Positions 5,164 through 24,672 of a stretch of DNA of 42,220 nt are shown piece by piece. The stretch lies in the NCBI GenBank assembly GCA_023128895.1, contig JAGMDC010000007.1, positions 1 to 42,220 on the forward strand, in the 5' to 3' direction. Below the pieces are notes generated by a model. It saw only the letters and a list, made by a program, of their open reading frames with translations, did no database searches and was not told where the DNA came from. Made by a program: the position numbers and the translations under genes. Every line of letters begins with the position of its first letter. Positions within the stretch are counted from its first letter, which is position 1. The stretch comes from Candidatus Parcubacteria bacterium (GTDB lineage Bacteria > Patescibacteriota > Minisyncoccia > Minisyncoccales > JAGMDC01).

Positions 5164-5179
5164 ATATAATAATTTTTCA

Positions 5180-5767
5180 ATGAATCAATTTTCAAACAAC
5201 AAAGGGTTTACGCTGATAGAAGTTGTGGTTTCTATTTTTATGTTTTTTTCAATATTTGTAGTGATTTTAGGATTTTTCGGATATGCTGTTAAGGGACAGA
5301 AAAAAGCGCTTGCCTCGCAAGAGATTTCTGACCAAATAAGTTATGTTATGGAATATATGAGCAGAAGCATAAGAATGGCAAACAAGGATGTGGGAGGAAC
5401 TTGTATCGCGGCTGGAAAAAATTATGAAATCACAACCCCTATGGCAGGATATTCTTGCATAAGATTTTTGAATTATGACAATAAATGTCAAGAATTTTGT
5501 TTTGATTCAAACAACAATCAATTAAAAAGACGTAAATCTGGTGATGGCGGCTCTGGAGGACTTGTCGGCTCTGAAGTGGACATAACCTCATCCAAACTCA
5601 AAGTAAATTCCGCTCAATTCAACATTATTGGCAACGGAATTGGGGATAATATTCAGCCAAAGATAACTATTTCTCTTGATGTGGAAAAAAATGCTGAAAA
5701 GCCGGAATACAACGCCCAAATCAAAATCCAATCCACAATTTCGCAAAGAAACCTTGATACGAACTAA
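5180..5767 (+). CDS. Minor type IV pilin (PilW/PulJ-like)
   Basis: Class III signal NKG|FTLIEVVVS followed by a hydrophobic helix. Confidence 0.85.
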   Translation: MNQFSNNKGFTLIEVVVSIFMFFSIFVVILGFFGYAVKGQKKALASQEISDQISYVMEYMSRSIRMANKDVGGTCIAAGKNYEITTPMAGYSCIRFLNYDNKCQEFCFDSNNNQLKRRKSGDGGSGGLVGSEVDITSSKLKVNSAQFNIIGNGIGDNIQPKITISLDVEKNAEKPEYNAQIKIQSTISQRNLDTN

Positions 5768-5778
5768 CGGCTGCAGCC

Positions 5779-5852
5779 GTCACCCTGAACGATAGCGAAG
5801 GGTCTCGTCCCAACAGTGATACAAAGAGACTCTTCGCTCCGCTCAGAATGAC
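5779..5852. repeat. REP-like inverted repeat element
   Basis: Arms GTCACCCTGAACGATAGCGAAGGGTCTC / GAGACTCTTCGCTCCGCTCAGAATGAC. Confidence 0.7.
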
Positions 5853-5862
5853 AATAAAAACA

Positions 5863-6267
5863 ATGAAACAATTTTCAAACTCTCAAAAAGGCGTAGCATT
5901 GTATGTTACTTTAATCGTCACATCCATAGTTCTGGCGATTGCTTTGGGCATAAGCTTGATTTTAGTTGGACAATTAAAAATGACAAGGGAAATCGGAGAT
6001 TCGACAAAAGCGTTTTTTGCCGCAGACGCCGGCATGGAAAGGGTGCTTGATCAAAGTATATCTGAAATTGAAACAAACAACGGTTATTATTCCGCTTCTT
6101 TTGACGGAAACCCTGATTATGGTTACGAAGTTTGGGTATACAGCAGTCCTAGTTGCGCTATCTGCGGGACCATACCAGTTGACGCTGCTTGTACCGGACA
6201 ATATCTTTGCTACAGGTCAAAAGGATTTTATAAAAGCATTAATAGGGCAATAGAGATTGTGAGGTGA
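5863..6267 (+). CDS. Minor pilin, PilX/GspK-like
   Basis: QKG|VALYVTL without Glu5, 'AFFAADAGME' motif; start moved from 5848 (inside the repeat) to MKQFSNSQKG, which parallels MNQFSNNKG of the upstream gene. Confidence 0.8.
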   Translation: MKQFSNSQKGVALYVTLIVTSIVLAIALGISLILVGQLKMTREIGDSTKAFFAADAGMERVLDQSISEIETNNGYYSASFDGNPDYGYEVWVYSSPSCAICGTIPVDAACTGQYLCYRSKGFYKSINRAIEIVR

Positions 6268-6274
6268 AGTGCGC

Positions 6275-6359
6275 ATAATATTGCGGCTATGCCGCATAAT
6301 TACTCGCTCGGAATAAATACAAAAACAAGCTTTTGTATTTATTCCTCGCTCATAATTAT
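6275..6359 (-). repeat. 85-bp two-hairpin element (copy A), inverted relative to 10130-10214
   Basis: Reverse complement matches 10130-10214 at 70/85 without gaps; perfect 15-bp stem 6310-6345. Confidence 0.85.
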
Positions 6360-8355
6360 GAATAGAATACAGGCGAAAAAGAGAATTGAAAAACTAAAAG
6401 CGGTGATTTCTTATCACCGTTATTTATATCATGTGTTAGACAAGCAGGAAATCTCTGACGAGGCTTTGGATTCCCTGAAACACGAACTCTATAAACTGGA
6501 ACAGCAATATCCGGATTTGCTCACTCCTGATTCTCCGACTCAGCGCGTAGGCGGCGAGCCCTTGAAGGAATTCAAAAAAGTAGAGCATAAAACGCCTATG
6601 CTTTCTATGGAGGATATTTTCTCGCAAGAAGAATTAAAAGATTGGGAAAACTATCTGAAACGGCTTTTGCCCGGGACATCGTTTAATTATTTTTGCGAAC
6701 CGAAAATAGACGGTTTTGCCATTAGTTTAATTTACAAAAATGGTGTTTTAATTCAGGGATCCACGCGCGGGGACGGAAAAATCGGAGAAAATGTGACGCA
6801 AAATTTAAAAACTATTGAAAGCATCCCATTAAAATTGAAATTGAGTCAAGACCCGAGATTGACAAAAGAGGTTGACATCAGGGGCGAGGTCTATATGGAA
6901 AAAAAGGATTTTGAAAAATTCAACAAAAAAAGAAAACAACTGAATGAACAGCCCTTTGCCAATCCCAGAAATTTGGCTGCCGGTTCTATCAGGCAGCTTG
7001 ACTCAAAACTTATGGCTTCCCGCCCTTTGAAATTTTTGGCTTATGATATTGCGAGCGACCTCGGACAAACAACACACTCTCAAGGGCACCAAATACTGCT
7101 CTCTTTGGGATTCAAAACCGAACTCGGCAAAAAATGCGCGAATTTACAAGAAATACAAAAATACTGGCAAAAAGTATCACAAAAGAGAAAAAATCTCGCT
7201 TTCCAAATTGACGGCATAGTGATCAATGTTGAAAATAATTCGTTTTTCAAAAAATTAGGAACAGCGGGAAAAAGCCCAAGAGGCGCGAGGGCTTTCAAAT
7301 TTTTTCCGGAACAAGCGACAACTATTATTGAAGATGTAAAATTCCAAATTGGAAGAACAGGCGCCATAACTCCGGTTGCTTTGTTAAAACCAATAAAAAT
7401 AGGGGGAACAACTGTGTCAAAAGCAACATTGCATAACGAAGACGAAATCAAGCGATTAGGAGTAAAAATAGGAGACACGATAATAGTTGAAAGAGCAGGA
7501 GATGTAATCCCTGCAGTGGAAAAAGTCCTGCCAGAACTGCGCGACGGAAAAGAAAAAAGAATTCAAATGCCAACTATCTGCCCTGTATGTAAGACCCCTT
7601 TAATTAAACCAAAAGGAGAGGTTATATGGAGGTGCCCGAATAAAAATTGTTTTGCCGTAAAAAGAGAATTATTAGAGCATTTTGCTTCCAAAAAGGGCTT
7701 TAATATTGACGGATTGGGACCGAAAATTATAAACAAACTATTGGAGGAAAATTTAATATGGTCTCCTTGCGATTTCTTTCATCTTTCCAAGGGAGATTTA
7801 TCTCCTTTGGAAAGATTTGCGGAAAAGTCAGATGAAAATTTAATACAAGCAATCCAGAAAAGCAAGACAATTCCTTTATCCAGATTTATTTATGCCTTGG
7901 GCATCCGTTTTGTGGGTGAAGAAACAGCAATTGTGCTTGCGCAATATTTCGGCTCTCTAAAAAAAATCATGGAAGCAAACAAACAGGAATTATCAGCAGT
8001 GCCGGATGTCGGACCTCGGGTCTCCAACAGCATCTTTAATTGGTTTCGAGAAAAAGACAATCAAAAATTAATTACTGATTTGATAAGCGCGGGAATAAGA
8101 ATTCTTGCTCCGGCAAAAATATCGCGAAAATTATCCGGAAAAACATTTGTTTTGACAGGGACATTAAATTCAATGACACGGGAGCAGACAAAAAACAAAA
8201 TTCGGTTTTTGGGAGGCGATGTCCCGAATTCAATTTCTCAAAAAACTATGTTTCTGGTTGTTGGCAAAAACCCTGGGGAGACAAAAACAAAAAAAGCCAA
8301 AAAAGTTGGTATAAAAATCATACACGAAAAAGAATTTCTAAAAATGATCAAGTGA
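6358..8355 (+). CDS. ligA: NAD-dependent DNA ligase
   Basis: EPKIDG, TRGDG, FANPRN, Cys4 zinc finger, HhH repeats, BRCT; the 6289 start lies in the repeat, so 6358 is preferred. Confidence 0.97.
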   Translation: MNRIQAKKRIEKLKAVISYHRYLYHVLDKQEISDEALDSLKHELYKLEQQYPDLLTPDSPTQRVGGEPLKEFKKVEHKTPMLSMEDIFSQEELKDWENYLKRLLPGTSFNYFCEPKIDGFAISLIYKNGVLIQGSTRGDGKIGENVTQNLKTIESIPLKLKLSQDPRLTKEVDIRGEVYMEKKDFEKFNKKRKQLNEQPFANPRNLAAGSIRQLDSKLMASRPLKFLAYDIASDLGQTTHSQGHQILLSLGFKTELGKKCANLQEIQKYWQKVSQKRKNLAFQIDGIVINVENNSFFKKLGTAGKSPRGARAFKFFPEQATTIIEDVKFQIGRTGAITPVALLKPIKIGGTTVSKATLHNEDEIKRLGVKIGDTIIVERAGDVIPAVEKVLPELRDGKEKRIQMPTICPVCKTPLIKPKGEVIWRCPNKNCFAVKRELLEHFASKKGFNIDGLGPKIINKLLEENLIWSPCDFFHLSKGDLSPLERFAEKSDENLIQAIQKSKTIPLSRFIYALGIRFVGEETAIVLAQYFGSLKKIMEANKQELSAVPDVGPRVSNSIFNWFREKDNQKLITDLISAGIRILAPAKISRKLSGKTFVLTGTLNSMTREQTKNKIRFLGGDVPNSISQKTMFLVVGKNPGETKTKKAKKVGIKIIHEKEFLKMIK

Positions 8356-10134: not shown

Positions 10135-10214
10135 TAGGAGCGAGGGAGAAGTACAAAAATTCATTTTTGTATTTTAACCGAGCGAGTAATTATGCGGCTT
10201 TGCCGCAATAATAG
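10130..10214 (+). repeat. 85-bp two-hairpin element (copy B)
   Basis: GAGCGAG-hairpin-CCGAGCGAG followed by TGCGGC-ttt-GCCGCA; see copy A. Confidence 0.85.
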
Positions 10215-10218
10215 TTTA

Positions 10219-12120
10219 ATGTTTGAAACCCGAAAATTGAAAAAATTTTTGCTAAGTTTCGCATCTGTCAAAAAAACAACTTCATTGCTGATTTTGTTTT
10301 GCGTTATCGGCGGCATAATGGTTCCAATCTATCCTGCCAATGCCTGGCCTTCCTGGTGGGACGCGGTAGTCGTGGGCACTTTACCTGTTACTGCCCCGCT
10401 TCTTGGCGCAATAGCAGGCGCAAAATTTTTAAAAAGCAAATTGGACGAAGGCGGAATAAATATTTTTGAGGGAATGCTTTCTGTAGGCATTACTGGCTTA
10501 GTATCAGTCAGCTCTGTTTTTCTGTCACTTGGCCAAGGGGCTTTGGGCTGGGTGACCAGCCCTGGTTTTGTTAATGTGAGTTTTACAGGCGATGACAATA
10601 CAATCGTCGCAGAGGGATGGAAGATTGTCAGAAATCTTGTGAATATGTTTATTGTTCTAGGCTTTGTTATTGTTGCCCTTGCCACTATTATCGGCATACA
10701 AGAATACAACGCGCAAAAACTTTTGCCCGGTTTAATCGCAATAGCGCTTTTAATCAATTTCACGCCGGTAATCTGCGGTTTAATGATTGACGCTTCAAAC
10801 ATAGCGATGAATCATTTTTTATCAGGCGCGACATTGAATAGGGGTTTTATTGAAACTATAGATTACCAAACAGGCGCGATACTTGAAAAAGAGGGACTTG
10901 AATTGACAGAGAAACTCGGATTAGCAGCGGGCTTGGCTGGTTTTAATATTCTTGGAGGAATTATTTTCATGCTTTTCGCTCTTTTGTTCGCCGTAAGATA
11001 TGTCGCGCTCTGGATTTTAGTTATTTTGTCGCCTTTGGCGTTCTTTTGCTATATTTTTCCAAAAGCAAAAGGGGTATGGTCTGCCTGGTGGACGCAATTT
11101 TTTCAATGGTGCATTATTGGAATACCAGCGGCTTTCTTTATCTATTTATCAAACAATCTCACAGCTGAAATGATGAGAGGAAGTATGCTTGGCAAACCAA
11201 CTGGCGAAATCAGTGTAACCGGGTTCAGCGCTTTATTTATGTTTATGGTGCCTATGATGTTTATGGTTGTTGGATTGTTCGCTTCCTTAAAGACCGGCGC
11301 AATGGGCGCGAATATGATAACCGCATACGCGCAGACAACAGGAAAGCAAGCCACTACAAGAGTAAGCAAATGGGCTGGTGGGAAAGCCAAAAAACAAGTT
11401 GGTGAAATCGGCGAAAATCCTTGGGTTAGGAGAAGAATAGAAGGCGCGGGAAGAAGAGCTGAATGGCTTGATAAATACAAACACCCGACTGAAAGAGGGA
11501 GAGTTTTGGCAGACGCGACGCAAAGAGAAAAGAGAAACCAAGAAATAGAGGCAAGTAAAAAACGAATAATTCACTTATCCGCGGATGAAAGAGAAAAAGT
11601 GGCTGGAACAAATATTGAGAAAATAGGTAAATTCAGAGCAGACACTGAACAAGATATGCTTAGCGACCACGATAAGAGAAATATAAATGTTGTAAGAAAA
11701 TATGGAACGGGTAAAGATATAGGCGACGCGGAAAAGAAACGACCTGACTGGGCAGGGGATTTAGATACGGAAAAGGTTCAAAAAATTATGATGGCTGATA
11801 GCGTATCCGAGGAAGTGGCAAAAAAAAGAGTTGTCAGAAAAAAAATAGAAGGAATAACTCCGTTAAAACTGAGACAGGAAATACAACCAGAGGCATTGGA
11901 AAATGTTGATGTGTTTACTGCTATGAGTAAACAGCAATACGAAGAAATAAAAAATAAAGGCAAGAAAAAACACAGAGAAGCAATGAAAAAAAATATTACT
12001 AAAAATATACACGCGATAAGGCAGACAATTAATGAAATAGAAGATACCGGGCAATATGAGAGAGCGTCTGAATTAATGGATAGAGTAATAGAAATAGATT
12101 CCAGCCCGGATTTTGCTTAA
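10219..12120 (+). CDS. VirB6/TrbL-like polytopic T4SS membrane protein with a charged cytoplasmic tail
   Basis: About 8-9 hydrophobic segments; GW.IVRN..N, ALLINF, R...LWILVILSPLAF, W..WW motifs; context with PrgI/VirB4; start taken downstream of the repeat. Confidence 0.7.
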   Translation: MFETRKLKKFLLSFASVKKTTSLLILFCVIGGIMVPIYPANAWPSWWDAVVVGTLPVTAPLLGAIAGAKFLKSKLDEGGINIFEGMLSVGITGLVSVSSVFLSLGQGALGWVTSPGFVNVSFTGDDNTIVAEGWKIVRNLVNMFIVLGFVIVALATIIGIQEYNAQKLLPGLIAIALLINFTPVICGLMIDASNIAMNHFLSGATLNRGFIETIDYQTGAILEKEGLELTEKLGLAAGLAGFNILGGIIFMLFALLFAVRYVALWILVILSPLAFFCYIFPKAKGVWSAWWTQFFQWCIIGIPAAFFIYLSNNLTAEMMRGSMLGKPTGEISVTGFSALFMFMVPMMFMVVGLFASLKTGAMGANMITAYAQTTGKQATTRVSKWAGGKAKKQVGEIGENPWVRRRIEGAGRRAEWLDKYKHPTERGRVLADATQREKRNQEIEASKKRIIHLSADEREKVAGTNIEKIGKFRADTEQDMLSDHDKRNINVVRKYGTGKDIGDAEKKRPDWAGDLDTEKVQKIMMADSVSEEVAKKRVVRKKIEGITPLKLRQEIQPEALENVDVFTAMSKQQYEEIKNKGKKKHREAMKKNITKNIHAIRQTINEIEDTGQYERASELMDRVIEIDSSPDFA

Positions 12121-12141
12121 TATTTAATTTTGAATACTTTA

Positions 12142-12558
12142 ATGAAATATAATACAAATATAAAAATAATTTTTCCAGAAAACACTGTTTTAATTATCGC
12201 TAAAATTATGAAAAAATATGGGGTAGCAGAGAAAAGAGAAACGATATTTGAAAAATTAGAAAAACAAGAAACAACTAATGCAAAAAAAATAGCAAAAATC
12301 ATCAAAAAAGCGGCTGAAGAAAAAGCGCCTATCAAAACAATTTCTTCTAATATCCAAAAACATTTAAAGATTCCGACAAAACAAGCGAAAAAAATGGCTC
12401 AAGAGATTCAGAAAAATATCTTAAACCTTGTAAAAGAAACTCTGGTTAAAGGCGAAGAAATAAACGAGAAACCAATCAAAACAATACCAAATAAATTTTC
12501 AATAAAAAAATCAAAAGAAGAACAAAATCCAGACGCATATAGAGAAACAATTAAATAA
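12142..12558 (+). CDS. Lys-rich hypothetical protein ending in a D(P/A)YRE-type motif
   Basis: Open frame co-oriented with the VirB6-like gene; C-terminus PDAYRETIK; start uncertain (12130 TTG or 12142 ATG). Confidence 0.7.
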   Translation: MKYNTNIKIIFPENTVLIIAKIMKKYGVAEKRETIFEKLEKQETTNAKKIAKIIKKAAEEKAPIKTISSNIQKHLKIPTKQAKKMAQEIQKNILNLVKETLVKGEEINEKPIKTIPNKFSIKKSKEEQNPDAYRETIK

Positions 12559-14076: not shown

Positions 14077-14478
14077 ATGGAGTTTACTGTTCCAAAATTT
14101 ATTGAGAAAGAAGCGAAAATCATAGGGCCTTTGACTTTTAAACAATTTTTATGTTTGCTCATACCAGGAGCCACTGTGTTTCTCGCTTATTATACTTTGC
14201 CTCTTGCCATTGCTATTCTTCTCGCTATTGTTTTAATGGGCGGCGGTATTGCTCTTGCTTTTTTGAAAATCGGGGGCAGGAGTTTTCCTGTTGTTATGAA
14301 AAATTTTGTAACCTTTTATCCTTCTGTAAAATTATATGTCTGGAAAAGAAAAGCCATACCGCCGAAAATAATAAAAAAAGAAGAAGTAAAACAAAAGAAA
14401 AAAGAAATTGCTATTTCTCCAAAGGTTACCGAGAGCAAACTGAAAAATTTATCCAGTAGAATTGAAACCTTTAGATAA
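14077..14478 (+). CDS. PrgI-family (VirB3-like) T4SS protein
   Basis: VPKFIEKEAKIIGPLTFKQF, two TM helices, Y.W motif. Confidence 0.85.
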   Translation: MEFTVPKFIEKEAKIIGPLTFKQFLCLLIPGATVFLAYYTLPLAIAILLAIVLMGGGIALAFLKIGGRSFPVVMKNFVTFYPSVKLYVWKRKAIPPKIIKKEEVKQKKKEIAISPKVTESKLKNLSSRIETFR

Positions 14479-14488
14479 ATATAAAATT

Positions 14489-15133
14489 ATGGCGCAGCCA
14501 TCCACACAAAGTTTTTTAGAAATCGGACAAATCAAAGAAGGCGTGCTTATTCTGAAAAGCAACGCGTTAAGGAGCATATTAATGGTCTCGTCTTTGAATT
14601 ACGCGCTGAAATCAAACGAAGAGCAAACCGCGATTATTTATCAATTCCAAAATTTCCTGAATTCTCTGGATTTTACCTGCCAGATTATTGTTCAGTCCAG
14701 ACGGTTAAATATTACTGGCTATCTTGAAAAATTGCGCAAAGCAGAGGAAAAACAAACCAATGATTTGTTAAAAATTCAAATATCCGGATATATAGAATTT
14801 ATAGAAAGTTTAGTTGGCACTGGAAGCATTATGAATAAATCGTTTTTCGTAATAGTGCCTTTTAGTTTGTTTGACGAGCGAAAACAGCAGCCAAAAGATG
14901 GAATAAAACTGCAAGCCCCGAAATTCCCAATCCTAACTGAAGAAACTTTTAAGCGATGCAAATCCCAATTAATGCAAAGAACTAATTTTATAATGATGGG
15001 ATTGGCAAGATGCGGATTAAAAGCCACGCCGCTAAATACTTCTGAAATAATTGAATTATTCTGGTCATTGCACCACCCAAAAAGAGCCGAAGTCGGCTAT
15101 TATCCTGAAATGCCGCCAGAATTAACCCTATAA
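14489..15133 (+). CDS. T4SS protein resembling the TraC/VirB4 N-terminal domain
   Basis: STQSFLEI..IKEG, SSLNYALKS.EEQ, FLNSLDF..QI; lies between prgI and the ATPase. Confidence 0.7.
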   Translation: MAQPSTQSFLEIGQIKEGVLILKSNALRSILMVSSLNYALKSNEEQTAIIYQFQNFLNSLDFTCQIIVQSRRLNITGYLEKLRKAEEKQTNDLLKIQISGYIEFIESLVGTGSIMNKSFFVIVPFSLFDERKQQPKDGIKLQAPKFPILTEETFKRCKSQLMQRTNFIMMGLARCGLKATPLNTSEIIELFWSLHHPKRAEVGYYPEMPPELTL

Positions 15134-15310: not shown

Positions 15311-17098
15311 ATGAAATTTCCTTTTTTTAAAAAACCAAAACAAAATATCGTAGAAAAATTGTTTGAAAAAGAAACACTAAGAGCCGCGGACATTATTGCC
15401 CCTGCTTCTATTAAAGTAGAACAAAGCCGATTACAGATAGGAGATGAACGGTTTGCTAAAACATTTTTTATTTTTTCCTACCCGCGTTATCTAAACTCCG
15501 GCTGGCTGTCGCCGATTATAAACTTAGACGTTCCAATGGATGTTTCTTTTTTTATCCACCCTATCGCGAGCGGGATAGTGTTAAAACAATTAAGAAAACG
15601 GCTCACAGAAATTCAGGCAGAACTTTTAACAAGAGAGGAGAAAGGACTTATTCGGGACCCGACTTTGGAAACAGCGTTAAATGATATTGAAAATTTAAGA
15701 GACCAGCTTCAAACAGCCCAGGAAAGAATGTTTAAGTTTGGGCTTTATATCACTGTTTACGCAAACCAGGAAAAAGAACTCGCGGAAACAGAGACAGAAC
15801 TGCGTTCTATTTTAGAATCACGGTTGATTTATATCAAACCCGCGTTATACCAGCAAAAACAAGGATTTACTTCCACCTCCCCTTATGGGCTGGACCAATT
15901 AGGAGTGCACAACACTGTAAACACTGAACCATTGTCCAGTATTTTTCCTTTTATCTCTTTTGATTTGTCTTCCAACGAAGGCATCTTATACGGAATTAAC
16001 AAACACAACAATTCTTTGGTTTTGTTTGATAGATTTACCATGGAAAATTCAAACTTCACAATTTTCGGAAAATCCGGTTCCGGAAAGTCATTTTTGGTGA
16101 AAATTGAGGCGCTTCGGTCGTTAATGCTCGGCACTGATGTAATTATTCTTGACCCTGAAAACGAATATAAAGCGCTGGCAAACAGCGTCGGCGGCGCGTT
16201 TTTCAGCATTTCTTTGTCTTCTCCGCATCATATCAATCCTTTTGACCTTCCAGCGCCCCGGGAAGACGAAAGGCCTGAAGATGTACTACGTTCCAATATT
16301 ATTAATTTAGTAGGATTGTTCAGAATTATGTTCGGTGGATTAACGCCCGAAGAAGACGCGATTATGGACAGAGCGATAACAGAAACATACGCGGCAAAAG
16401 ATATTTCTGCGGACACCGATCCAAAATTATGGAGCAAAAACTTTCCTTTAATGCAGGATTTGGAAGCAGTGCTGGAAACAATGGACGGAGCGGAATCATT
16501 AGTAAGGAGGACAAGAAAATTCACCAAAGGAACTTTTGCAAAATTCTTTAACCAGCCGTCCAACATTTCCGTGAATAAAAGATTCGTAGTGTTTGGAATC
16601 AGGGATATGGAAGATGAATTAAGGCCTATAGCAATGTTTATGGTAATGAGATATATTTGGAACTCCGTCCGAGCGGAAATTAAAAAAAGAATATTAGTGG
16701 TGGATGAGGCATGGTGGATAATGCAGTCGGAAGACGGAGCTTCATTTTTGTTCGGCATCTGCAAGAGAGCCAGAAAATACTGGCTTGGCGTAACAACTAT
16801 TACGCAGGATGTGGCTGACTTTATGAAATCTCCTTATGGAAAACCAATTCTCACTAATTCGTCTCTGCATCTTTTAATGAAACAATCGCCTGCTTCTATT
16901 GATATAGTCCAAAAGACCTTTAATTTGACTGATGAGGAAAAATATATGCTTTTAGAGGCGGCTATTGGAGAAGGATTGTTTTTCGCTGGAATGAAACATG
17001 TGGCAATGAGGGTTGTCGCGTCTTACGCCGAAGAGCAAATCATCACCACAAACCCTGAAGAACTGCAAAAAATCAAATTGGCAAAAGAAACACAATAA
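15311..17098 (+). CDS. virB4: VirB4-like T4SS ATPase
   Basis: Walker A GKSGSGKS, ILDPENEY, INPFD, Walker B VVDEAW, KRARKY, ITQ. Confidence 0.9.
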   Translation: MKFPFFKKPKQNIVEKLFEKETLRAADIIAPASIKVEQSRLQIGDERFAKTFFIFSYPRYLNSGWLSPIINLDVPMDVSFFIHPIASGIVLKQLRKRLTEIQAELLTREEKGLIRDPTLETALNDIENLRDQLQTAQERMFKFGLYITVYANQEKELAETETELRSILESRLIYIKPALYQQKQGFTSTSPYGLDQLGVHNTVNTEPLSSIFPFISFDLSSNEGILYGINKHNNSLVLFDRFTMENSNFTIFGKSGSGKSFLVKIEALRSLMLGTDVIILDPENEYKALANSVGGAFFSISLSSPHHINPFDLPAPREDERPEDVLRSNIINLVGLFRIMFGGLTPEEDAIMDRAITETYAAKDISADTDPKLWSKNFPLMQDLEAVLETMDGAESLVRRTRKFTKGTFAKFFNQPSNISVNKRFVVFGIRDMEDELRPIAMFMVMRYIWNSVRAEIKKRILVVDEAWWIMQSEDGASFLFGICKRARKYWLGVTTITQDVADFMKSPYGKPILTNSSLHLLMKQSPASIDIVQKTFNLTDEEKYMLLEAAIGEGLFFAGMKHVAMRVVASYAEEQIITTNPEELQKIKLAKETQ

Positions 17099-17113: not shown

Positions 17114-17518
17114 ATGTCAGATCTTATGAGTCCAGAGGGGGTTGTAATGCTTGCTCTGGCAGTAATGTTAGATATAATAGGGATAATTTGTTTGATTTTA
17201 GACCTTGTTTTTGGAATAGGTGAAGTTCTTTCTTATATCCCTGATTTTATAGGTATTGGATTTTTTGGACTTTGGATTTTAATGCGTTCGCAAGAGGAAA
17301 AAACCTATAAACAAGCAAGAGGGGAAGTGGCAAGCGCAGTTGCTGAACATAAAAGAAAAGTCCAAGCAGCGAAAAAAGCGTTCAAAAAAGGCGCTAAAAG
17401 AGCTGGCAAAAGAGGATTTAAATTTTTATTCGCTATGGTTGGAGAACTTATCCCATTACTTGGCGCCCTGCCGTTTTGGACCATATTTGTACTTCTTGAA
17501 TTGAGAGGGGATAAGTGA
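17114..17518 (+). CDS. Small membrane protein of the T4SS locus
   Basis: Hydrophobic N-terminal hairpin, basic linker, ELIPLLGALPFWT. Confidence 0.75.
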   Translation: MSDLMSPEGVVMLALAVMLDIIGIICLILDLVFGIGEVLSYIPDFIGIGFFGLWILMRSQEEKTYKQARGEVASAVAEHKRKVQAAKKAFKKGAKRAGKRGFKFLFAMVGELIPLLGALPFWTIFVLLELRGDK

Positions 17519-17555: not shown

Positions 17556-18941
17556 ATGATTAACAATCAAAAAATTCTTTTAATACTTATCCTTATAGGA
17601 GTTTTTGGATTGTTCTGCGCTAGCAATTTTGTATTAGCCCAGGAAATCACCGATTATCCAACAATATCGGGCGCTGACACGCCTGGACCAGACACCACTC
17701 TGCCTCAGTATATCAAATATTTATTTAATTTCGGCATAGCGCTGGGAGGAATTTTGGCTTTTGTTGTTTTTGCTTTTGGAGGCGTAATGTGGGTTATGTC
17801 TGCCGGCAACCCGGTAATAATCGGTATTGCAAAAGCAAAAATGCTCAAAGGAATTATGGGTCTGGCTCTCCTGCTCGCCTCATACCTGATTATTGTTGCC
17901 ATAAATCCTGATTTAACTGTTTTAACTTTGGAAGATTTAGATTGGAAAGAATATACCGGTCGTAAATATGTTCCGGCAGACATAGACGCGAAAACTTATA
18001 AAGAAATGCCTATTGGCCTTTTAATTGAAGATATTTTGGCGAAAAATATCAGTTGTTTTGACAAAGACGGCAATTTAATTAACTGCAGAACTCAGGAAAT
18101 TATCCAGCACGCCAAAGAGGATATCTTTGCTCCTGATACACATTATAATTACTGCTATAAATATGATAATCGGGGCAATAAAAAAGAGTTAATGGATTAT
18201 CGCGACCGAATGGACTGCATAAAAAGACTTTTAGTCGCGATTAAAATAAAAAGCAATGAATTAAAACAAATATCTAAAAAATTAGAGATAGCGCTTAAAC
18301 AATGTAAATGCACAAACTGTGACCATGGCTATTGCATAGATGGATTTTGCAATGGTCGATGTAAATGTATTCCTTGTAAAAATCACTGCCATTGCTGCGG
18401 CAGTCCAAGAGAAGAACGGATATCCTGTTCAGGCAATCCTCCTTTCACGCTTTATACAGACCCCTGCCCCAACAGAAAGGAAATAGATGATATAAGAAAT
18501 GAAATTCACCAAATAATAAATGGAACTAAGAAAAAAATTGACGGCGCAAATATAATAGATGATCCATTGCATGACACAAAATTTTTATATCTTAAAGAAG
18601 CTCAAGAAAGGTTAAATGGCTTAAAACAAGAATTAAATAAAGACTTAGACGAGTTAAAAGAAGTAGAAGAACTAACAAAATTTCCTTACGGCAAGCGATT
18701 AAGTTTGGCAGAATATTTTGACAAAAAATTAAAAAGAAACATAAACAAACAAATGTTCAAACACTTCTATATCCCTGAATACGACAGTATTTCAAGATAC
18801 TGTAAGATATTTAACTGCAAAGATTTTGATAGTGATGTTTGTCACGGATACAGACTTAATGACAAAGGCATATTATGCAATTTATTCAATTTTGACGGCG
18901 ATCCAGCCACTTTCTATTATCCTAAAAAAGAATATGAATAG
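17556..18941 (+). CDS. VirB2/TrbC-like pilin fused to a Cys-rich helical extracellular domain
   Basis: Signal peptide (VLA|Q); YIKYLFNF..GG..W..SAGNP....AK......GL.LLL..Y.I...INP; 11 Cys in about 32 aa. Confidence 0.75.
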   Translation: MINNQKILLILILIGVFGLFCASNFVLAQEITDYPTISGADTPGPDTTLPQYIKYLFNFGIALGGILAFVVFAFGGVMWVMSAGNPVIIGIAKAKMLKGIMGLALLLASYLIIVAINPDLTVLTLEDLDWKEYTGRKYVPADIDAKTYKEMPIGLLIEDILAKNISCFDKDGNLINCRTQEIIQHAKEDIFAPDTHYNYCYKYDNRGNKKELMDYRDRMDCIKRLLVAIKIKSNELKQISKKLEIALKQCKCTNCDHGYCIDGFCNGRCKCIPCKNHCHCCGSPREERISCSGNPPFTLYTDPCPNRKEIDDIRNEIHQIINGTKKKIDGANIIDDPLHDTKFLYLKEAQERLNGLKQELNKDLDELKEVEELTKFPYGKRLSLAEYFDKKLKRNINKQMFKHFYIPEYDSISRYCKIFNCKDFDSDVCHGYRLNDKGILCNLFNFDGDPATFYYPKKEYE

Positions 18942-19863
18942 CCATAATCATAAAATTATTTTCATTATATTGGCTCTGCCTTTAATCGGCGCCTTGACAT
19001 ATTCATTCTATAATTCCTATAGTAATGAAAATGCAAAGGTTTTTGCTTTTCTTGGAAAAGAAACAAAGTGCGTTGTTGACCCGGTTATAGAAAAAAAATT
19101 CTTGGGAACGGAAAGAGGCAAAATCCCGATTGGCGAAGCAGTTGACGAAGCAGAGGACTTTGCCCAAAAAATAATAGATGAAATGAACATTATAAATAGC
19201 AATCTTACAAATGAGATAAATGCTGGGAATGAATTAGTTTGGCTTCCTGAACAATGCGAATGTAAAAGGTGCACAAGCAGTATGGAAACAGATATTCTAA
19301 GGTGCCAATGGGAATGGACTACAGGTTCTGGATTAAACGAAAAAACGCATTCTTGCTCTTGCATTACTCAACATAATTGTAAATGTGTTTGCTCGGGCGA
19401 TGTCTGCCCGTTTGGCGAAATTGAAGGAAAAATAGATATAATCCAAGAAGCAGATTCAAATATTCAAAAATCTTTGGAAAGAATAATAGATTTAATTGAT
19501 GCGAAGAATTTATTGCCTGGTGACCCTGATAGATGGAATGTTTTGAATAAATTATTAAATTCGCGGGTAAAAATGGAGGAATGCATTATTGGCTATGACT
19601 CTGCGCTTGACGCGCCAAGAGCAAAAATGAATCTCTTGAGCTGCAGGATTGCCTTAGACAGAATATACTTGCATAAACTCAACATTGCCGGATATTTTGA
19701 AGATAATATATCTCCTTTCCCCCATTGTTATCCTTTTATTGCTGACAATACAATAAAATCTATTTGTATAGAAAACAAAGACAGCAAAGAATGCCGAGAA
19801 GCAATTAAGGATTATATGGATAACTATTTCTGCGCCGGCTATGTCGGCCTTGGCGATAAATAA
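18934..19863 (+). CDS. Membrane-anchored Cys-rich protein paralogous to the C-domain of 17556-18941
   Basis: One TM/signal segment; shared PIG, QCxCxxC and D(P/V)CP motifs; ATG overlaps the upstream stop. Confidence 0.7.
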   Translation: MNSHNHKIIFIILALPLIGALTYSFYNSYSNENAKVFAFLGKETKCVVDPVIEKKFLGTERGKIPIGEAVDEAEDFAQKIIDEMNIINSNLTNEINAGNELVWLPEQCECKRCTSSMETDILRCQWEWTTGSGLNEKTHSCSCITQHNCKCVCSGDVCPFGEIEGKIDIIQEADSNIQKSLERIIDLIDAKNLLPGDPDRWNVLNKLLNSRVKMEECIIGYDSALDAPRAKMNLLSCRIALDRIYLHKLNIAGYFEDNISPFPHCYPFIADNTIKSICIENKDSKECREAIKDYMDNYFCAGYVGLGDK

Positions 19864-19871
19864 ATGAATAT

Positions 19872-21248
19872 ATGAAAACCAATCAAAAAATCATTTTAAT
19901 ATTTATTCTTGTTGGATTTATGGCGCTGGTTTGCGCAGGAGATTTTGCTCTCGCGCAAAGGGATTTGGAAGTTATTGATTATCCCGATGTGCCTGGCGCT
20001 GTTACGCCCGGCAAAGACACTGAATTGCCCCAATATGTTAAGTATTTGTTTAATTTCGCCATTGGCTTAGGCGGAATTTTGGCGTTTGTTATTCTTATTT
20101 TTGGAGGAATTAAATGGATGACATCTGCCGGGGACCCGACAAAAATTAACGAAGCAAAAACAAAAATGCTCGGCGGCATTATTGGTTTAATACTGTTGTT
20201 AGGCGCTTGGTTTATTATTGACGCTATAAACCCAAAATTGCTCTCTCTGAAAAAAATGGATAAATTGGAACCAAACACAGGAATTTATGTTACCGGCGAT
20301 TTTACAGACAACGAAGGCAATGTATATCAAGAAAAAAGATGGTATGTAGGAGATATTCAAAGTTTCACAAATTTTGTTCCAACATCAATGGAATTCATCA
20401 GCGAACCATTGGAATTGCTTTCTGTTTTTGAACATACTCAAGAAGAATTTAAAGGCAGTATAGAAGAAATAGAAAACACGGGCAAAGGCAGCGGCGCCAA
20501 CATTTCAGGAAAATCAATTTCTTTCCAATGGGCAAAATCAGGATTTTACTTGTATGAAGAACCTGATTTTGATGTTTTACAGAAAAAGCCGGAATATCTT
20601 TCCGGGTCCGCGGCTGTTCTTAAGGAATGGGACAATATGACAGAATCCATAAAAATCAAGCATCCTTCAAAACAAATTATTAAAATGGGGGTCGCTTTCA
20701 CGGAACCGAATTTTAACGGAAAGTGTGAATTGGTTCTTGAAGGACTATATGAATTTTTTGATGATAAAATAAGCAATGATCTCATCACAAGGCTGCCAGA
20801 TTTTCCAACTTCTCATCCTGGGGCAGGCAAAGACCTGTCTTCTATGCATATATTTACTCTTGATACTGACAAAGAGCAAAAGGGCGAAGTAATCTTTTAC
20901 GACGAAATCAACTGCCAGGGAAACAGTTTTACAACAACCCTTGAAAGAGAAAGAGGCGCGACAGGAGTAGTAACGGGAAACATTATAGGTTCGGGTAGTT
21001 TTGTAAGTCATAACTTCGGGGCAAATACCGCTGACGAACGCGTTATGTCTTTCAAAATCAACGGGCCTTATGTTGTTGTTATTATGACAAAAGGGCTGGG
21101 CGTAGACAAATCAAACCGAATATGCCAGCGCTTCCTTAAACCAAACGACACAAATTGCTACGGCACTCTTAAAGGAAGCAATGTTTTTGACCCTGACCCA
21201 AACAGCGACTTGAAACCGCGCGGATTCTTTATAGTTGGTTCGAACTAA
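19872..21248 (+). CDS. VirB2-like pilin fused to beta/gamma-crystallin-like domains
   Basis: Same pilin motif; FYLYEEPDF..WDNMTES, FTEPNFNG, FYDEINCQG. Confidence 0.72.
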   Translation: MKTNQKIILIFILVGFMALVCAGDFALAQRDLEVIDYPDVPGAVTPGKDTELPQYVKYLFNFAIGLGGILAFVILIFGGIKWMTSAGDPTKINEAKTKMLGGIIGLILLLGAWFIIDAINPKLLSLKKMDKLEPNTGIYVTGDFTDNEGNVYQEKRWYVGDIQSFTNFVPTSMEFISEPLELLSVFEHTQEEFKGSIEEIENTGKGSGANISGKSISFQWAKSGFYLYEEPDFDVLQKKPEYLSGSAAVLKEWDNMTESIKIKHPSKQIIKMGVAFTEPNFNGKCELVLEGLYEFFDDKISNDLITRLPDFPTSHPGAGKDLSSMHIFTLDTDKEQKGEVIFYDEINCQGNSFTTTLERERGATGVVTGNIIGSGSFVSHNFGANTADERVMSFKINGPYVVVIMTKGLGVDKSNRICQRFLKPNDTNCYGTLKGSNVFDPDPNSDLKPRGFFIVGSN

Positions 21249-21257
21249 ACAACCAAT

Positions 21258-22931
21258 ATGGCTCAAAAAAAACAAAAAATCATTTTAATACTTATCCTTG
21301 TTGGATTTATGGCGCTGGTTTGCGCGGGGGATTTTGCTCTCGCGCAAAGGGATTTGGAAGTTATTGATTATCCTGATGTGCCTGGCGCCGCAGCGCCCGG
21401 CAGAGACACCACCCTGCCCCAATACATTAAATATCTGTTTAATTTCGGCATAGCCCTTGGAGGAATTTTGGTTTTTTTGGTCTTTGTATCCGCTGGAATT
21501 CGCTGGTCAACCTCTGCAGGCGACCCAACAAAAATCGCTCAGGCAAAATCAAGAATGCTGGCTGGAATAATCGGCTTGGCGCTGTTACTCTTCTGCTATC
21601 TTATAATCACTGCGATAAATCCCAATTTAAAAACATTTCAAGATGTGAAAGAAATGCCTCAAAGCGTTGGCATTTATATCACCGGCGATGTAACAGATAA
21701 CGAAGGAAACATATATCAAGAAGAAAGATGTTATCAGGGCAGTATTCCCGGCTTCACAAATTTTACTCCGACATCAATAAAATTTATCAGCAATGAAGAA
21801 GAGCTGCTTGCTATATTTGTTTACAGCCAGGAAGAATATAAAGGGACATCTACAAGGATTGAGAATAAAGGAAAAGGAACGGGGGACAACATTTCAGGAG
21901 AATCAATTGATTTCCTTTGGAACAAGCCCGGCACTTATTTATATGAAAAAACTAATTTTGAAATTCATAACAGGCAGCCAAAATTTTGTACAGGACTTTA
22001 CCAAGACCTAAGCAAAGATAACTGGGATAATAAAACGCAATCCTTGAAATTCAACAATATACCCGGAGCAGGCTTAAATTTCGGCGCTGTCTTATTCTCT
22101 GAAAATGATTTTGAGGGCAGCAAATGCGGATACGCGTTTGAAAAAGATGTTGCAGACCTGTCTCTTGGCAGCAATAATTATCTCTGGCCCATAGAAAAAG
22201 ACAACCTCTCTTCAATGATTGTGTTGAATACTTCAAAAACAGGCGGAACTGTAACTTTTTACGATTCAATCAACTGCCAGGGCAGAGAAAAAACATACAC
22301 GACTTCAGATGTTCTGGCAATAAACGACCTTACCAAGGACAATTGTTCGTTTGGGGATTGTCTCTTTGGTAGATTAAACGCGGATGATATAGAAAAAGAA
22401 TTGCATAGAAACATTATGTCTATGCGAATAGAAGGAGATATGTACGCGCTTCTTAAGTCGCAAGAGGGAGAAGAATATGTTCCTCCGCCTTGGGATGAAG
22501 AAAAAATTGAGTTTCCTCCCGGTATCCCAGTCAGCGAATGCACTACACGAGTGTTAGCAGCGCTTGCGAATGGAACTGAATTTGACATTGTCCGCCCAAC
22601 AAAAAAGGATTTAAGGTCAAGATTTCCCGAAACCAGAGGGGGTTGGCACGGCGAAACTCCGACTAATTTTAGTTGCGATGAAGTTTGCGCAAATCGAGGC
22701 CAGGATTGCCTAGGCATAGGATTATATAATGTAGAAAAGACTTTTTGCAGATATATAATACATAATATAGGATCGAATTGCCAGCTGTCAGCAAATTTAG
22801 AATGGGGAGAATGCGGAATGGGCTTTAGGTATGGATCCGGCTTCTGCGAAGAATCCTCTCCTGTCTGGGCATCATGGGGATATGCCGATACTGGCTGTTA
22901 TTGTGTGAATAAAGGAATCCTTGAAAAATAA
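21258..22931 (+). CDS. VirB2-like pilin with crystallin-like domains and a distinct Cys-rich C-terminal domain
   Basis: Paralog of 19872-21248 up to about residue 400 (YLYEKTNF, WDNKTQS, LFSENDFEG, DNLSS), then an unrelated SCDEVC...C domain. Confidence 0.72.
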   Translation: MAQKKQKIILILILVGFMALVCAGDFALAQRDLEVIDYPDVPGAAAPGRDTTLPQYIKYLFNFGIALGGILVFLVFVSAGIRWSTSAGDPTKIAQAKSRMLAGIIGLALLLFCYLIITAINPNLKTFQDVKEMPQSVGIYITGDVTDNEGNIYQEERCYQGSIPGFTNFTPTSIKFISNEEELLAIFVYSQEEYKGTSTRIENKGKGTGDNISGESIDFLWNKPGTYLYEKTNFEIHNRQPKFCTGLYQDLSKDNWDNKTQSLKFNNIPGAGLNFGAVLFSENDFEGSKCGYAFEKDVADLSLGSNNYLWPIEKDNLSSMIVLNTSKTGGTVTFYDSINCQGREKTYTTSDVLAINDLTKDNCSFGDCLFGRLNADDIEKELHRNIMSMRIEGDMYALLKSQEGEEYVPPPWDEEKIEFPPGIPVSECTTRVLAALANGTEFDIVRPTKKDLRSRFPETRGGWHGETPTNFSCDEVCANRGQDCLGIGLYNVEKTFCRYIIHNIGSNCQLSANLEWGECGMGFRYGSGFCEESSPVWASWGYADTGCYCVNKGILEK

Positions 22932-22950
22932 ATATTACTTTTGTAAAATT

Positions 22951-24672
22951 ATGAATATATTTGAAAAACTTCATTATAAACTCCAATATATTGATAAAAG
23001 GATTTTAATTATTTTGGCTATTGCAGCTGTTGTTTTACTAATAGCAATAATTTGTATTGTTTTTTTGGGAAACAAAGAAAAGCCGCTAACGCCACAGGAA
23101 AAGCAAGAGCAAGAACAAGAGCAAGAACAAGGAGAAACTGAAGAAGATGTGTATCATTACACGCCTTTGACTAAAACAGATTGTGAAAATACAACGAATA
23201 AACAAGAAAAACAAAAGTGTTTTGATAGATTAGAACACATAAATATTCTTATGCGAAACAATTATATAAAATGTTTGGATATTACTACATTGGAAGTTAG
23301 AGACGATTGTTTGTTAAATTTTGCTTATTCTATTCTTCTAAACGATAATTTATGTTTTGCTATTTCAGACCCCCAAAAAAGACATTTGTGCGTAGACAGA
23401 ATAATTATAACAAACAGAGACAAAAACGCTTGTAAAAAGCATTTTGGGGACGAACCATTTGAGTGTCAGGAATGTATGGACAGGATTTCAGCGTTTAATA
23501 TAGGGGAAGACAAAAATCCAGAAAAAATATATGAATGTCAAAAAATTAAAAGTTTGGAATATCCGAGATTATGCCTTTGGATGTCTTTTAAGAATACATT
23601 TAAGGATAATTGCGAATTAGTGCCTTTGGAGTTCAGGCCTTATTGTATTGCTTACTATACTATTCATAGCGCAAGCACAAAAGAGCATTGTTCAGCAATA
23701 GCATTAGAGCAATACAAAGATTTTTGTTTGGCTAAGGTTGAAGCAGGGGGATGGAGAGGAGTTGCATCTCTTGATTCAGACAATGACGGTATTACAGACT
23801 GGAACGATTTATTTATGGGATTAGATCCTAAAAATCCTGATACAGACGGAGACGGATTATCAGACGGGGATGAGATGTCTGAATATCATACAAATCCTAC
23901 AGAAAAAGACACTGATAATGACGGCTTGACTGATTATCAAGAAATAAAGATTTATCATACCAATCCTCAAAAGCCGGACACTGATGGAGATGGAATACTG
24001 GACGGAAAAGAGATCAGAAGCGGAAGCAATGCTTTAAGCGGAGATAGAGATAAAGACGGACTTTTAGACGAGATTGAAAAGAAAATTGGTACAAATATCA
24101 ATAAAAAGGACACTGATGGAGATGGAATGACTGACGGCGATGAATGGAAACGAGGGTTAAATCCTTTAAAACCAGGCGCTGTTTTATCTGATACTGATAA
24201 AGACGGGTTAAAGGATTTGGATGAGATTTTTTACGGAACAGACAGATTAAATCCTGATACAGACGGAGATGGAATTTTAGACGGGGAAGAGATAAAAAGA
24301 TTGACTAATCCATTAGGAAAGGGATATATGGATTTTGACAATGACGGAATAACTGATAAACAAGAAATAGAGCGCGGAACAAATCCTGTTTTGCCGGACG
24401 CCGGAGACAGCCATAGCAATATCGCGCCAACCAATGCTTCCGCCGCTATTCCAGATTCTGAGTATTCTTCTGATTGGCTTGCCAGTATTTTAAATCCTTT
24501 TCTCTCTTTAACCGCAAGCCAGGATCCAGACACAGACACAGGATGCCAGCTATTCAAAAAACCTAAAAGAAAAGACGGTTGTATCAACACCTTAAAAGGG
24601 AGCGCTGTATACAGCCCTGATTTTTCTGGAAAAAAAGTTGAGTCCTTAATGCTCATTCCAGCGAAATACTAA
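22951..24672 (+). CDS. Surface protein with Cx10-11C repeats and thrombospondin type 3-like Ca-binding repeats
   Basis: N-terminal TM, about 7 Cys-pair repeats, 9 DxDxDGxxDxx(E/D) repeats (about 23773-24366); ATG 22951 preferred over TTG 22921. Confidence 0.8.
   Translation: MNIFEKLHYKLQYIDKRILIILAIAAVVLLIAIICIVFLGNKEKPLTPQEKQEQEQEQEQGETEEDVYHYTPLTKTDCENTTNKQEKQKCFDRLEHINILMRNNYIKCLDITTLEVRDDCLLNFAYSILLNDNLCFAISDPQKRHLCVDRIIITNRDKNACKKHFGDEPFECQECMDRISAFNIGEDKNPEKIYECQKIKSLEYPRLCLWMSFKNTFKDNCELVPLEFRPYCIAYYTIHSASTKEHCSAIALEQYKDFCLAKVEAGGWRGVASLDSDNDGITDWNDLFMGLDPKNPDTDGDGLSDGDEMSEYHTNPTEKDTDNDGLTDYQEIKIYHTNPQKPDTDGDGILDGKEIRSGSNALSGDRDKDGLLDEIEKKIGTNINKKDTDGDGMTDGDEWKRGLNPLKPGAVLSDTDKDGLKDLDEIFYGTDRLNPDTDGDGILDGEEIKRLTNPLGKGYMDFDNDGITDKQEIERGTNPVLPDAGDSHSNIAPTNASAAIPDSEYSSDWLASILNPFLSLTASQDPDTDTGCQLFKKPKRKDGCINTLKGSAVYSPDFSGKKVESLMLIPAKY

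Follow-up and report, generated by a model that had tools for sequence, protein, structure and literature searches.

Pilin-hairpin proteins with large passenger domains in the virB4 block of a Parcubacteria genome

The 42,220-base contig C9 (JAGMDC010000007.1) of a Candidatus Parcubacteria bacterium, analysed whole and called the window below, carries a block of type IV secretion system (T4SS) genes in which three genes, W1, W2 and W3, each encode a signal peptide, a VirB2-like pilin hairpin and then 330-430 further residues of passenger. We favour, at a probability of roughly 45%, a reading in which these long-form pilins are low-copy subunits docked to the T4SS and their passengers are its host-contact or wall-interacting parts. 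The three genes had been proposed, at exactly these coordinates, in an earlier reading of the DNA from its letters alone (the sequence-only reading), and the open reading frames (ORFs, opened under translation table 11), hydrophobic segments and structural models bear the proposal out. That reading counted the pilin-fused genes correctly, and it passed over a fourth gene in the same range, at 18934-19863, which is without a hairpin. The T4SS association that it claimed for the locus also holds, with PrgI, TrsD and VirB4 encoded directly upstream. The four genes of this range are the following.

17556..18941, plus strand: W1, a long-form pilin of 461 aa, with signal peptide, hairpin at about residues 45-120 and, as passenger, 336 aa of Cys-rich helical sequence (module A)
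18934..19863, plus strand: module B, a stand-alone Cys-rich protein of 309 aa with 17 Cys and its own signal anchor, without a pilin hairpin
19872..21248, plus strand: W2, a long-form pilin of 458 aa, with signal peptide, PF18895 hairpin, a beta-rich domain (about 138-220) and a predicted double beta/gamma-crystallin fold (223-458)
21258..22931, plus strand: W3, a long-form pilin of 557 aa, paralogous to W2 and extended at its C-terminus by a further Cys-rich stretch of about 130 residues; 18 Cys

Three long-form pilins share one N-terminal module

An N-terminal module of about 125 residues is common to W1, W2 and W3 far beyond chance, with 61-71% protein identity there and 22-41% in the tails; between the W1 N-domain and its W2 and W3 counterparts the figure is 61-62%. 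Repeats were also found at the nucleotide level, where W2 and W3 share 300 nt at 79% and two 5' stretches (86 and 131 nt) recur in all three genes at 67-75%. The module has a signal peptide and a conserved LE..YP stretch, after which come two hydrophobic helices with the loop SAGDPxxxxxAK between them; in all three proteins the hydrophobic segments lie at residues 7-25 (signal), near 59-81 and near 99-120. The corresponding models are helix-loop-helix (helices 52-84 and 89-119 in W2; 49-81 and 86-116 in W1, with a predicted local distance difference test score, pLDDT, of about 90).

The VirB2-like character claimed by the sequence-only reading was borne out by the hidden Markov model search that it had suggested. 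W2 (44.9 bits, E 1.2e-11) and W3 (32.8 bits, E 7.5e-8) both exceed the gathering threshold of Pfam PF18895, T4SS_pilin (26.6 bits), making two of the three genes; W1 did not match PF18895 at E <= 0.1, and a phmmer search with the W2 module does recover it. The NCBIfam Mbov_0395 pilin-like model gives W2 39.5 bits, slightly under its cut-off of 40. PF04956 (TrbC/VirB2) matched none of W1-W3 at E <= 0.1; PF18895 and PF04956 both match four relatives (P0024, P0083, P0210 and P0228), which provides an indirect link to VirB2. Here and below, labels beginning with L, G and P denote related loci, genomes and proteins, and G000 is the window's own genome.

Ordinary short pilins are likely represented in this genome by five PF18895 genes (ORFs of 117-167 aa) on another contig, C8 (L022), at 3930-7871 on the minus strand. 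They flank a 512-aa polytopic membrane protein and lie far from virB4. When the long-form N-domains are aligned with two of these short pilins, Y37, P38, G78, G79, S85, G87, P89, A95 and G105 are near-invariant. Of 44 long forms, 35 have the motif [LIVF]E..YP ahead of the hairpin; among 14 short ones it is present in 4. A predicted complex of two C8 short-pilin copies (residues 40-120) with the W2 N-domain (40-128) scored 0.00 in a run without controls, which is evidence neither way.

Despite having passengers from different old families, the W1, W2 and W3 N-domains form one group in a quick tree (SH-aLRT 99), and the same tree groups N-domains by genome, not by passenger type, in two further loci (L039 and L041). 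Such likeness within a locus fits homogenisation of modules that must stay compatible. Between orthologues, identity is 52% in the N-domain versus 40% in the passenger for the W2 type, and 58% versus 52% for the W1 type.

Crystallin-fold passengers of W2 and W3

The W2 model has a mean pLDDT of 77.6 and shows a passenger rich in beta structure. In the VIA search its residues 223-458 align structurally with entire two-domain gamma-crystallins (Z 14.1, root-mean-square deviation 3.0 Å, 171 of 171 residues), and Foldseek likewise returns crystallin (E 2.6e-7, probability 1.0, template modelling score 0.70 on the target). On the evidence of this model the W2 passenger is a double beta/gamma-crystallin fold, as the structural comparison suggested by the sequence-only reading was to decide. 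The W3 tail aligns with that of W2 at 41% identity, and W3 is assigned to the crystallins by this homology. Greek-key signatures of the form [YFW]xxxx[YFWC]xG occur in W2 as FTEPNFNG (276) and YDEINCQG (343), and in W3 as YSQEEYKG (189), FSENDFEG (280) and YDSINCQG (335). The Pfam crystallin models, the other profile check that had been proposed, fared worse: none matched W2, and W3 matched only Crystall_3, below cut-off (E 0.019, 15.5 bits against 27.3).

The canonical Ca2+ motif of microbial beta/gamma-crystallins is [ND][ND]xx[ST]S. The sequence-only reading had seen 'DN..(S/T)S' motifs here and taken the domains to be stabilised by Ca2+, but the strict pattern is absent from W2 (which has DNMTES), from W3 (DNKTQS) and from 53 of 66 family members; the motifs seen do not fit the pattern, and Ca2+ stabilisation is left unsupported for these domains. 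Judged by sequence, the TSP3-repeat protein encoded next door is a likelier Ca2+ binder than the crystallin domains. The passenger types themselves are as that reading described them: helical and Cys-rich in W1, crystallin in W2, and crystallin with a Cys-rich stretch in W3.

The Cys-rich passenger of W1 and module B

The W1 tail contains 21 Cys and long predicted helices, with the Cys cluster left unmodelled. The passenger model is poor (pLDDT below 50 over 262-300 and 394-461), and the fold cannot be judged from it. Fold searches of the Protein Data Bank (PDB) with W1 gave a best Foldseek E of 2.8 and, in a wide VIA search, Z scores of at most 8.1, all to generic helical hairpins or coiled coils; no VirB5-like fold turned up in these searches, in which the passenger model is poor. 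A W1-family profile found nothing significant among PDB sequences, and the ESM Atlas held no usable match to the W1 tail or to the W3 C-terminal stretch. No recognisable hydrolase domain was found in W1, W2 or W3.

The module B gene starts 8 nt before the W1 gene stops. Aligned by hhalign with the W1 family, module B falls onto the second module of its longer members (probability 99.3%, E 1.3e-20); since BLASTP between W1 and module B reaches only E 1.9, this kinship is seen only with a profile. Modules A and B are joined behind one hairpin in a relative of 766 aa (P0120), and nine related loci have the split order, in which module A is fused to a pilin hairpin and a free module B, on a signal anchor of its own, comes next. 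Because the split pair recurs in these nine loci, W1 and module B are a stable gene pair and not the product of a frameshift. An origin by frameshift or pseudogene formation is ruled out, the 32-residue signal anchor of module B being absent from the fused P0120.

Long forms and virB4 loci in relatives

Searched with phmmer against 1.84 billion representative proteins, the W2 N-domain retrieved 30,094 at E <= 1e-3. We analysed 165 proteins, made up of the best 150 of the 30,094, 12 from length-limited searches and W1-W3, a set biased to the close kin of the query. A single N-terminal hairpin is present in 118 of the 165, and 105 of those 118 have a tail of at least 200 aa (the first 16 of the 105 came from length-limited searches). 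Several hairpins per chain were found in 43 proteins and a single internal hairpin in four. Three chains carry tandem PF18895 hairpins, 6-11 in each (P0083, 1775 aa; P0024, 1147 aa; P0101, 1382 aa), two of them also matched by PF04956; these multi-hairpin 'polypilins' may be true fusions or unsplit gene calls.

Long forms are common across the order and rarer elsewhere in the phylum. In a set of 61 genomes, made up of G000 plus 60 relatives that are mostly of the same order, 60 genomes have PF18895, and among the 150 matches listed for this set, beyond which lie 168 more, 39 are in open frames of at least 300 aa. In a phylum-wide sample, 12 of the 150 listed matches lie in frames of at least 300 aa, two of them from this order.

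VirB4 is present in 40 of 41 genomes. We took 37 related virB4 loci regardless of whether they hold long forms, and 35 of these are informative for what follows virB4. One to four long forms stand directly behind virB4 in 21 of the 35, mostly after a homologue of smTM, the small membrane protein gene that precedes W1 in the window, and before jag-yidC. Beyond these and the loci without any gene between virB4 and jag/yidC (see Discussion), a short pilin alone follows in three, smTM and then jag in one, and plain-anchor Cys-rich genes in one (L040); in one more (L054) the gene is cut by the contig end. An smTM homologue lies directly 3' of virB4 in 21 of the 37 loci, with a pilin-domain gene next in 19 of them (the exceptions are L040 and L053), and none was detected in the eight loci where jag directly follows virB4. 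By this gene order, smTM may be a dedicated pilin partner. Away from virB4, pilin-fused genes adjoin a homologue of the window's VirB6-like 642-aa protein in four loci (L010, L012, L044 and L053).

The passengers of these relatives differ in kind as well as in length. The 46 tails compared (43 from the loci, and W1-W3) form 12 single-linkage clusters, of 21 (W1 type), 12 (W2 type), 3 and 2 members and eight singletons, so that the W1 and W2 types hold 33 of the 46. Long forms number 0-4 per locus, and tails range from 214 to 1,526 aa. Pfam domains on the long forms of the loci are Peptidase_M23 (2), the lamin-tail domain LTD (2) and NosD/beta-helix (1); the best phmmer matches add SLT_3, NlpC/P60, Peptidase_Mx1, thioredoxin, dockerin and Amidase_2. 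Within one genus (g4), two genomes (G003 and G007) have W1- and W2-type genes, and a third (G006) has one long form of another class. The block is a conserved one, made up of smTM, one gene of the W1 type, module B and one or two genes of the W2 type; replacement is occasional, and the array is not freely shuffled. The passengers are not hypervariable either, since orthologues keep 40-52% identity.

The sequence-only reading had called the passengers interchangeable. The 12 clusters and the other domains found in relatives agree with this in part, but two families account for most of the tails, the gene order is conserved across this taxonomic order and strains are about 1% apart. It had named two outcomes as counting against itself. 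Invariant passengers were not found in the passenger catalogue that it had called for, and an N-domain folded unlike VirB2 did not come to light in models whose hairpin matches generic helical hairpins.

Differences between strains

Near-identical strains are represented by contig pieces from four runs of three other studies, no piece spanning the whole block. The pieces cover parts of VirB4, smTM, W1, module B, W2, W3 and the TSP3 gene and differ from the window by about 1%. Cassette switching between strains was considered and found no support, in that no replacement was seen in these pieces, which cover parts of the block only.

Two local differences were noted. At 19294-19338, inside the module B gene and in the region of a Cys cluster, one run (X5) has 18 substitutions in 45 bases and four elsewhere in a 1,569-base piece, a patch that resembles local recombination or a hypervariable stretch. 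In the TSP3 gene, a record in four of four runs links 23001 to 24285 via 32 other letters, and other pieces cover part of the gap; the junction could mark a shorter allele from which the greater share of the Cys-rich and TSP3 region is missing, or repeats collapsed in assembly.

Genes around the block

On the plus strand the block reads PrgI, TrsD, VirB4, smTM, W1, module B, W2, W3 and the TSP3 protein. Its 3' border is jag-yidC, on the opposite strand, and dnaN and dnaA lie about 15 kb away. Besides the genes listed above, the following features belong to the block or precede it.

10192..12120, plus strand: VirB6-like candidate by topology and synteny only; a polytopic membrane protein of 642 aa whose C-terminal half is hydrophilic
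12130..12558, plus strand: 142-aa protein of unassigned function, 3' of the 642-aa gene in relatives too
14077..14478, plus strand: PrgI/VirB3-like small membrane protein (Pfam PrgI PF12666, E 1.6e-8, 35.4 bits, cut-off 27; two hydrophobic segments)
14462..15133, plus strand: TrsD-like protein, free-standing kin of the N-terminal part of VirB4 (NCBIfam VirB4_plasma and TrsD)
15311..17098, plus strand: VirB4-family T4SS ATPase (NCBIfam conju_CD1110, E 5.2e-110, 368.9 bits, cut-off 325)
17114..17518, plus strand: smTM, a 134-aa small membrane protein encoded between virB4 and the first pilin-domain gene
22921..24672, plus strand: TSP3 protein, membrane-anchored and Cys-rich, last gene of the block (TSP3_bac PF18884, E 9.1e-41, seven repeats)

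The 642-aa protein has seven hydrophobic segments and no match in Pfam or NCBIfam, and its homologues accompany PrgI-TrsD-VirB4 in most related loci. Homologues of the 142-aa protein, which has no Pfam family, follow directly behind the 642-aa gene in eight loci (L010, L013, L015, L016, L026, L030, L037 and L045). The VirB4 ATPase also matches Pfam P-loop_TraG (1.6e-28) and CagE_TrbE_VirB (9.5e-5). No Pfam or NCBIfam family above threshold was found for smTM. The TrsD-like protein matches VirB4_plasma (E 3.7e-9, model positions 103-232) and TrsD NF041427 (E 2.4e-5), both under curated cut-offs, and its gene is probably the 'split gene' of the sequence-only reading. A free-standing TrsD-like gene followed by VirB4 is the arrangement in nearly all related loci, and is already on record in the available part of PMC12102498.

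The TSP3 protein has one hydrophobic segment (28-46) and 19 Cys, and its start (TTG at 22921) is uncertain. It shows no sequence similarity to W3, and no separate homologue was found among the 37 related virB4 loci at E <= 1e-4.

The genome as a whole measures 741 kb and is 96.6% complete. The neighbours of the block are housekeeping genes (gyrA, ligA, ftsW, clpP, nusA, murJ and a penicillin-binding protein, with dnaN and dnaA at 37.7-40.5 kb), and the nearest named relatives of the window's proteins and loci are Candidatus Parcubacteria, Nealsonbacteria and Minisyncoccales metagenome-assembled genomes. Parts of a type IV pilus are encoded on the same contig at 5180-6267 and 32355-34109, namely a prepilin with an N-methylation motif, a PilX_N protein and a PilB-type T2SSE ATPase. 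DNA near-identical to the window was found in cold-seep and marine-sediment metagenome runs of several studies (word share 0.5-0.76 outside the likely source study).

Discussion

The reading that we tentatively favour is that the long forms are low-copy pilins docked to the T4SS. The proteins would be exported by Sec and lose their signal peptides, and the VirB2-like two-helix hairpin would stay in the membrane. With the loop SAGDPxxxxxAK in the cytoplasm and the C-terminus outside, a topology that we infer from the hairpin, the passenger would be placed on the cell surface. The hairpin would serve as a T4SS-specific docking or assembly module and not as a generic anchor, and the long forms would share the path of the genome's five short pilins. 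A few long-form copies could then sit at the outer end or collar of the pilin-based structure whose assembly would be the work of VirB4, PrgI, TrsD and the VirB6-like protein. In that position the Cys-rich pair (W1 and free module B), the crystallin domains of W2 and W3 and, in relatives, the hydrolases might act in host contact, adhesion and wall interaction or remodelling. The machine in question would be the one on which epibiotic growth depends in other Patescibacteria. Three features suggest that the hairpin does more than a generic anchor would: its loop residues are common with the short pilins, the LE..YP motif precedes it and the N-domains are alike within each locus. The passengers suit extracellular contact because of the crystallin fold, the many Cys, the TSP3 protein next door and the M23, LTD, beta-helix, SLT_3, NlpC/P60, Amidase_2 and dockerin domains of relatives.

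A plain membrane anchor is the alternative that survives best, and we hold it possible while giving it less credence. The proteins would then remain in the cytoplasmic membrane, outside pilin assembly, as wall-spanning adhesins or remodellers near the T4SS, comparable to VirB1 types anchored by a transmembrane segment. Several findings weigh against a docked pilin, and a number of them speak directly for such an anchor. Searched against PDB sequences, the N-domain profile found no solved VirB2/TraA pilin (its best hit, at E 0.31, is an unrelated protein), and in the fold search of the full-length W1 model the hairpin matched generic helical hairpins at Z 7-8, none above 8.1. In the quick tree the long-form N-domains and four of the five short pilins of this genome fall on separate branches (support 98), and these N-domains are 26-31% identical to the two short pilins aligned with them; because of this separate branch and low identity, co-assembly with short pilins is not implied. 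In eight of the 35 informative loci virB4 runs straight to jag/yidC with no long form there. The Cys-rich module occurs without any hairpin, on a simple signal anchor, in 13 of the 33 ORFs that carry it. Among these cases are module B itself and a locus (L040 5784-9589, in G032) with three consecutive genes behind smTM that bear Cys-rich helical modules on plain signal anchors; the pilin-fused forms of the same genome lie 23 kb from virB4 and adjoin the VirB6-like gene. The module can evidently do without a pilin-hairpin tether, given the 13 ORFs, L040 and the free module B here.

Membrane-anchored VirB1-like proteins of monoderm T4SSs (PrgK type) carry wall hydrolases. By analogy, the M23, NlpC/P60, SLT_3 and Amidase_2 passengers of relatives would fit a simple anchor. 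No pilus is on record for this organism, and pili are normally absent from monoderm T4SSs according to the available part of PMC12102498. However, a plain anchor has no need of a loop conserved with the short pilins, of an LE..YP motif or of N-domains that are alike locus by locus, and the N-domains are somewhat better kept than the passengers. Our weighting of the readings follows from this balance, in which module conservation and N-domain grouping are set against the hairpin-free Cys modules, the separate branch and the hydrolases.

The docked-pilin reading has a bolder form, which we consider doubtful. Here the long forms would be minor or tip pilins of the essential Patescibacteria T4SS pilus, with VirB4 loading a few at its distal end by way of the hairpin, so that they carry adhesins or hydrolases to the host surface. 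If this were true, the passengers would take hold of the host wall and breach it, so that the cargo of the machine, of whatever kind, could pass. The long forms would then be the T4SS counterpart of type IV tip minor pilins and would supply the host recognition so far missing from the epibiont machinery.

It is unlikely that the long forms are themselves the structural subunits, with the hairpins packed into the core of a thick filament, homo- or heteropolymeric, and the passengers arranged around it as an outer layer, while the short pilins build another structure. The long forms are indeed the pilin-domain genes of the virB4 operon, the short pilins lying elsewhere, and their N-domains are kept alike within the locus. 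A C-terminus on the outer face of VirB2-type filaments, as would be expected from F- and T-pilus structures, would permit outward display. But passengers of 330-1,500 aa on every subunit would be sterically demanding, enzyme passengers would make poor coat domains, and both the number of genes and the size of the tails vary widely between close relatives.

We see very little prospect that these are general surface proteins unrelated to the T4SS and that the virB4 neighbourhood is simply a conserved, highly expressed region near oriC/yidC: the block does end at jag-yidC close to dnaN/dnaA, and the pilin-fused forms of G032 do lie far from virB4, but the N-module belongs to a T4SS pilin family, copies away from virB4 adjoin the VirB6-like homologue, and smTM and pilin genes co-occur. 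Readings other than these are given an equally slight chance.

The T4SS and its pilins are essential in the sole Patescibacterium that is open to genetic work. Passenger-bearing pilin modules in the virB4 operon are concrete candidates for host contact, with wall hydrolases included in some lineages, and it may be through the fused design that the machine meets the host cell. The capacity of a VirB2-type hairpin to bear hundreds of additional residues is also relevant to the way in which pilins are inserted, extracted and assembled. The design is not peculiar to this genome and is widespread in this order of Patescibacteria.

Comparison with known systems

The sequence-only reading had put the locus forward as a candidate for an undescribed system, a claim that the literature does not allow. 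Within the available part of PMC12102498 (Quinonero-Coronel et al. 2025), a chromosomal MPF-FATA-like Patescibacteria T4SS near dnaA is already published, TrsD is its commonest component and an adhesin such as PrgB went undetected in the surveyed genomes. VirB2-like arrays of 2-11 genes, tolerating an intervening non-pilin gene, are reported from 383 assemblies in the available parts of PMC12102498, PMC10633639 and the review PMC12857230, and such pilin arrays are essential in Southlakia according to the available part of PMC10633639 (Wang et al. 2023). One locus in our set (L021 6312-15360, a Candidatus Magasanikbacteria contig) has fourteen consecutive pilin-domain genes of 130-300 aa, more than the 2-11 quoted in that part of PMC12102498. 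Passengers of 330-1,500 aa, the Cys-rich module family and crystallin passengers go unmentioned in the available parts of the three papers, supplements aside, and none appeared in wider full-text searching.

The block resembles the published arrays in its PF18895 domains, in its tandem paralogues adjoining virB4, PrgI and TrsD, in its chromosomal place near dnaA, and in that no relaxase or coupling protein was seen in the window. It differs in size, the published pilins being treated as small in the available parts of those papers, whereas W1, W2 and W3 have 461, 458 and 557 aa and so exceed the roughly 100-170 aa, free of any further domain, expected of a pilin in such an array. It also differs in that the operon copies here are all long and the ordinary short pilins lie on another contig.

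Conjugative pilins of the VirB2/TrbC/TraA families have the same signal peptide and two-helix hydrophobic hairpin with a short polar loop, but the canonical ones are of about 70-120 aa, passenger-free and from diderms, and W1-W3 match neither PF04956 nor a solved pilin. Type IVb minor pilins of the CofB/TcpB type carry large C-terminal domains. With these the long forms would share a core-fitting pilin module and large beta-rich contact domains at a tip, an analogy only, the pilin fold being unrelated and the machinery that of a type IV pilus and not a T4SS.

Like the microbial beta/gamma-crystallins Protein S and spherulin 3a, the predicted W2 passenger has two Greek-key domains arranged as in lens gamma-crystallin; unlike them, W2 and W3 lack the strict Ca2+ motif, fall short of the Pfam models and are fused to a membrane hairpin. 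VirB1/PrgK-type hydrolases and VirB5-type tip adhesins offer a parallel in their extracellular accessory roles at the T4SS, and relatives of W1 do carry M23, NlpC/P60, SLT_3 and amidase domains, whereas those families are not anchored by a pilin hairpin and W1-W3 show no recognisable hydrolase domain. The machine is one already described, and the fusion of its pilin hairpins to large, probably outward-facing domains is a variant of a known system that goes unmentioned in the literature searched.

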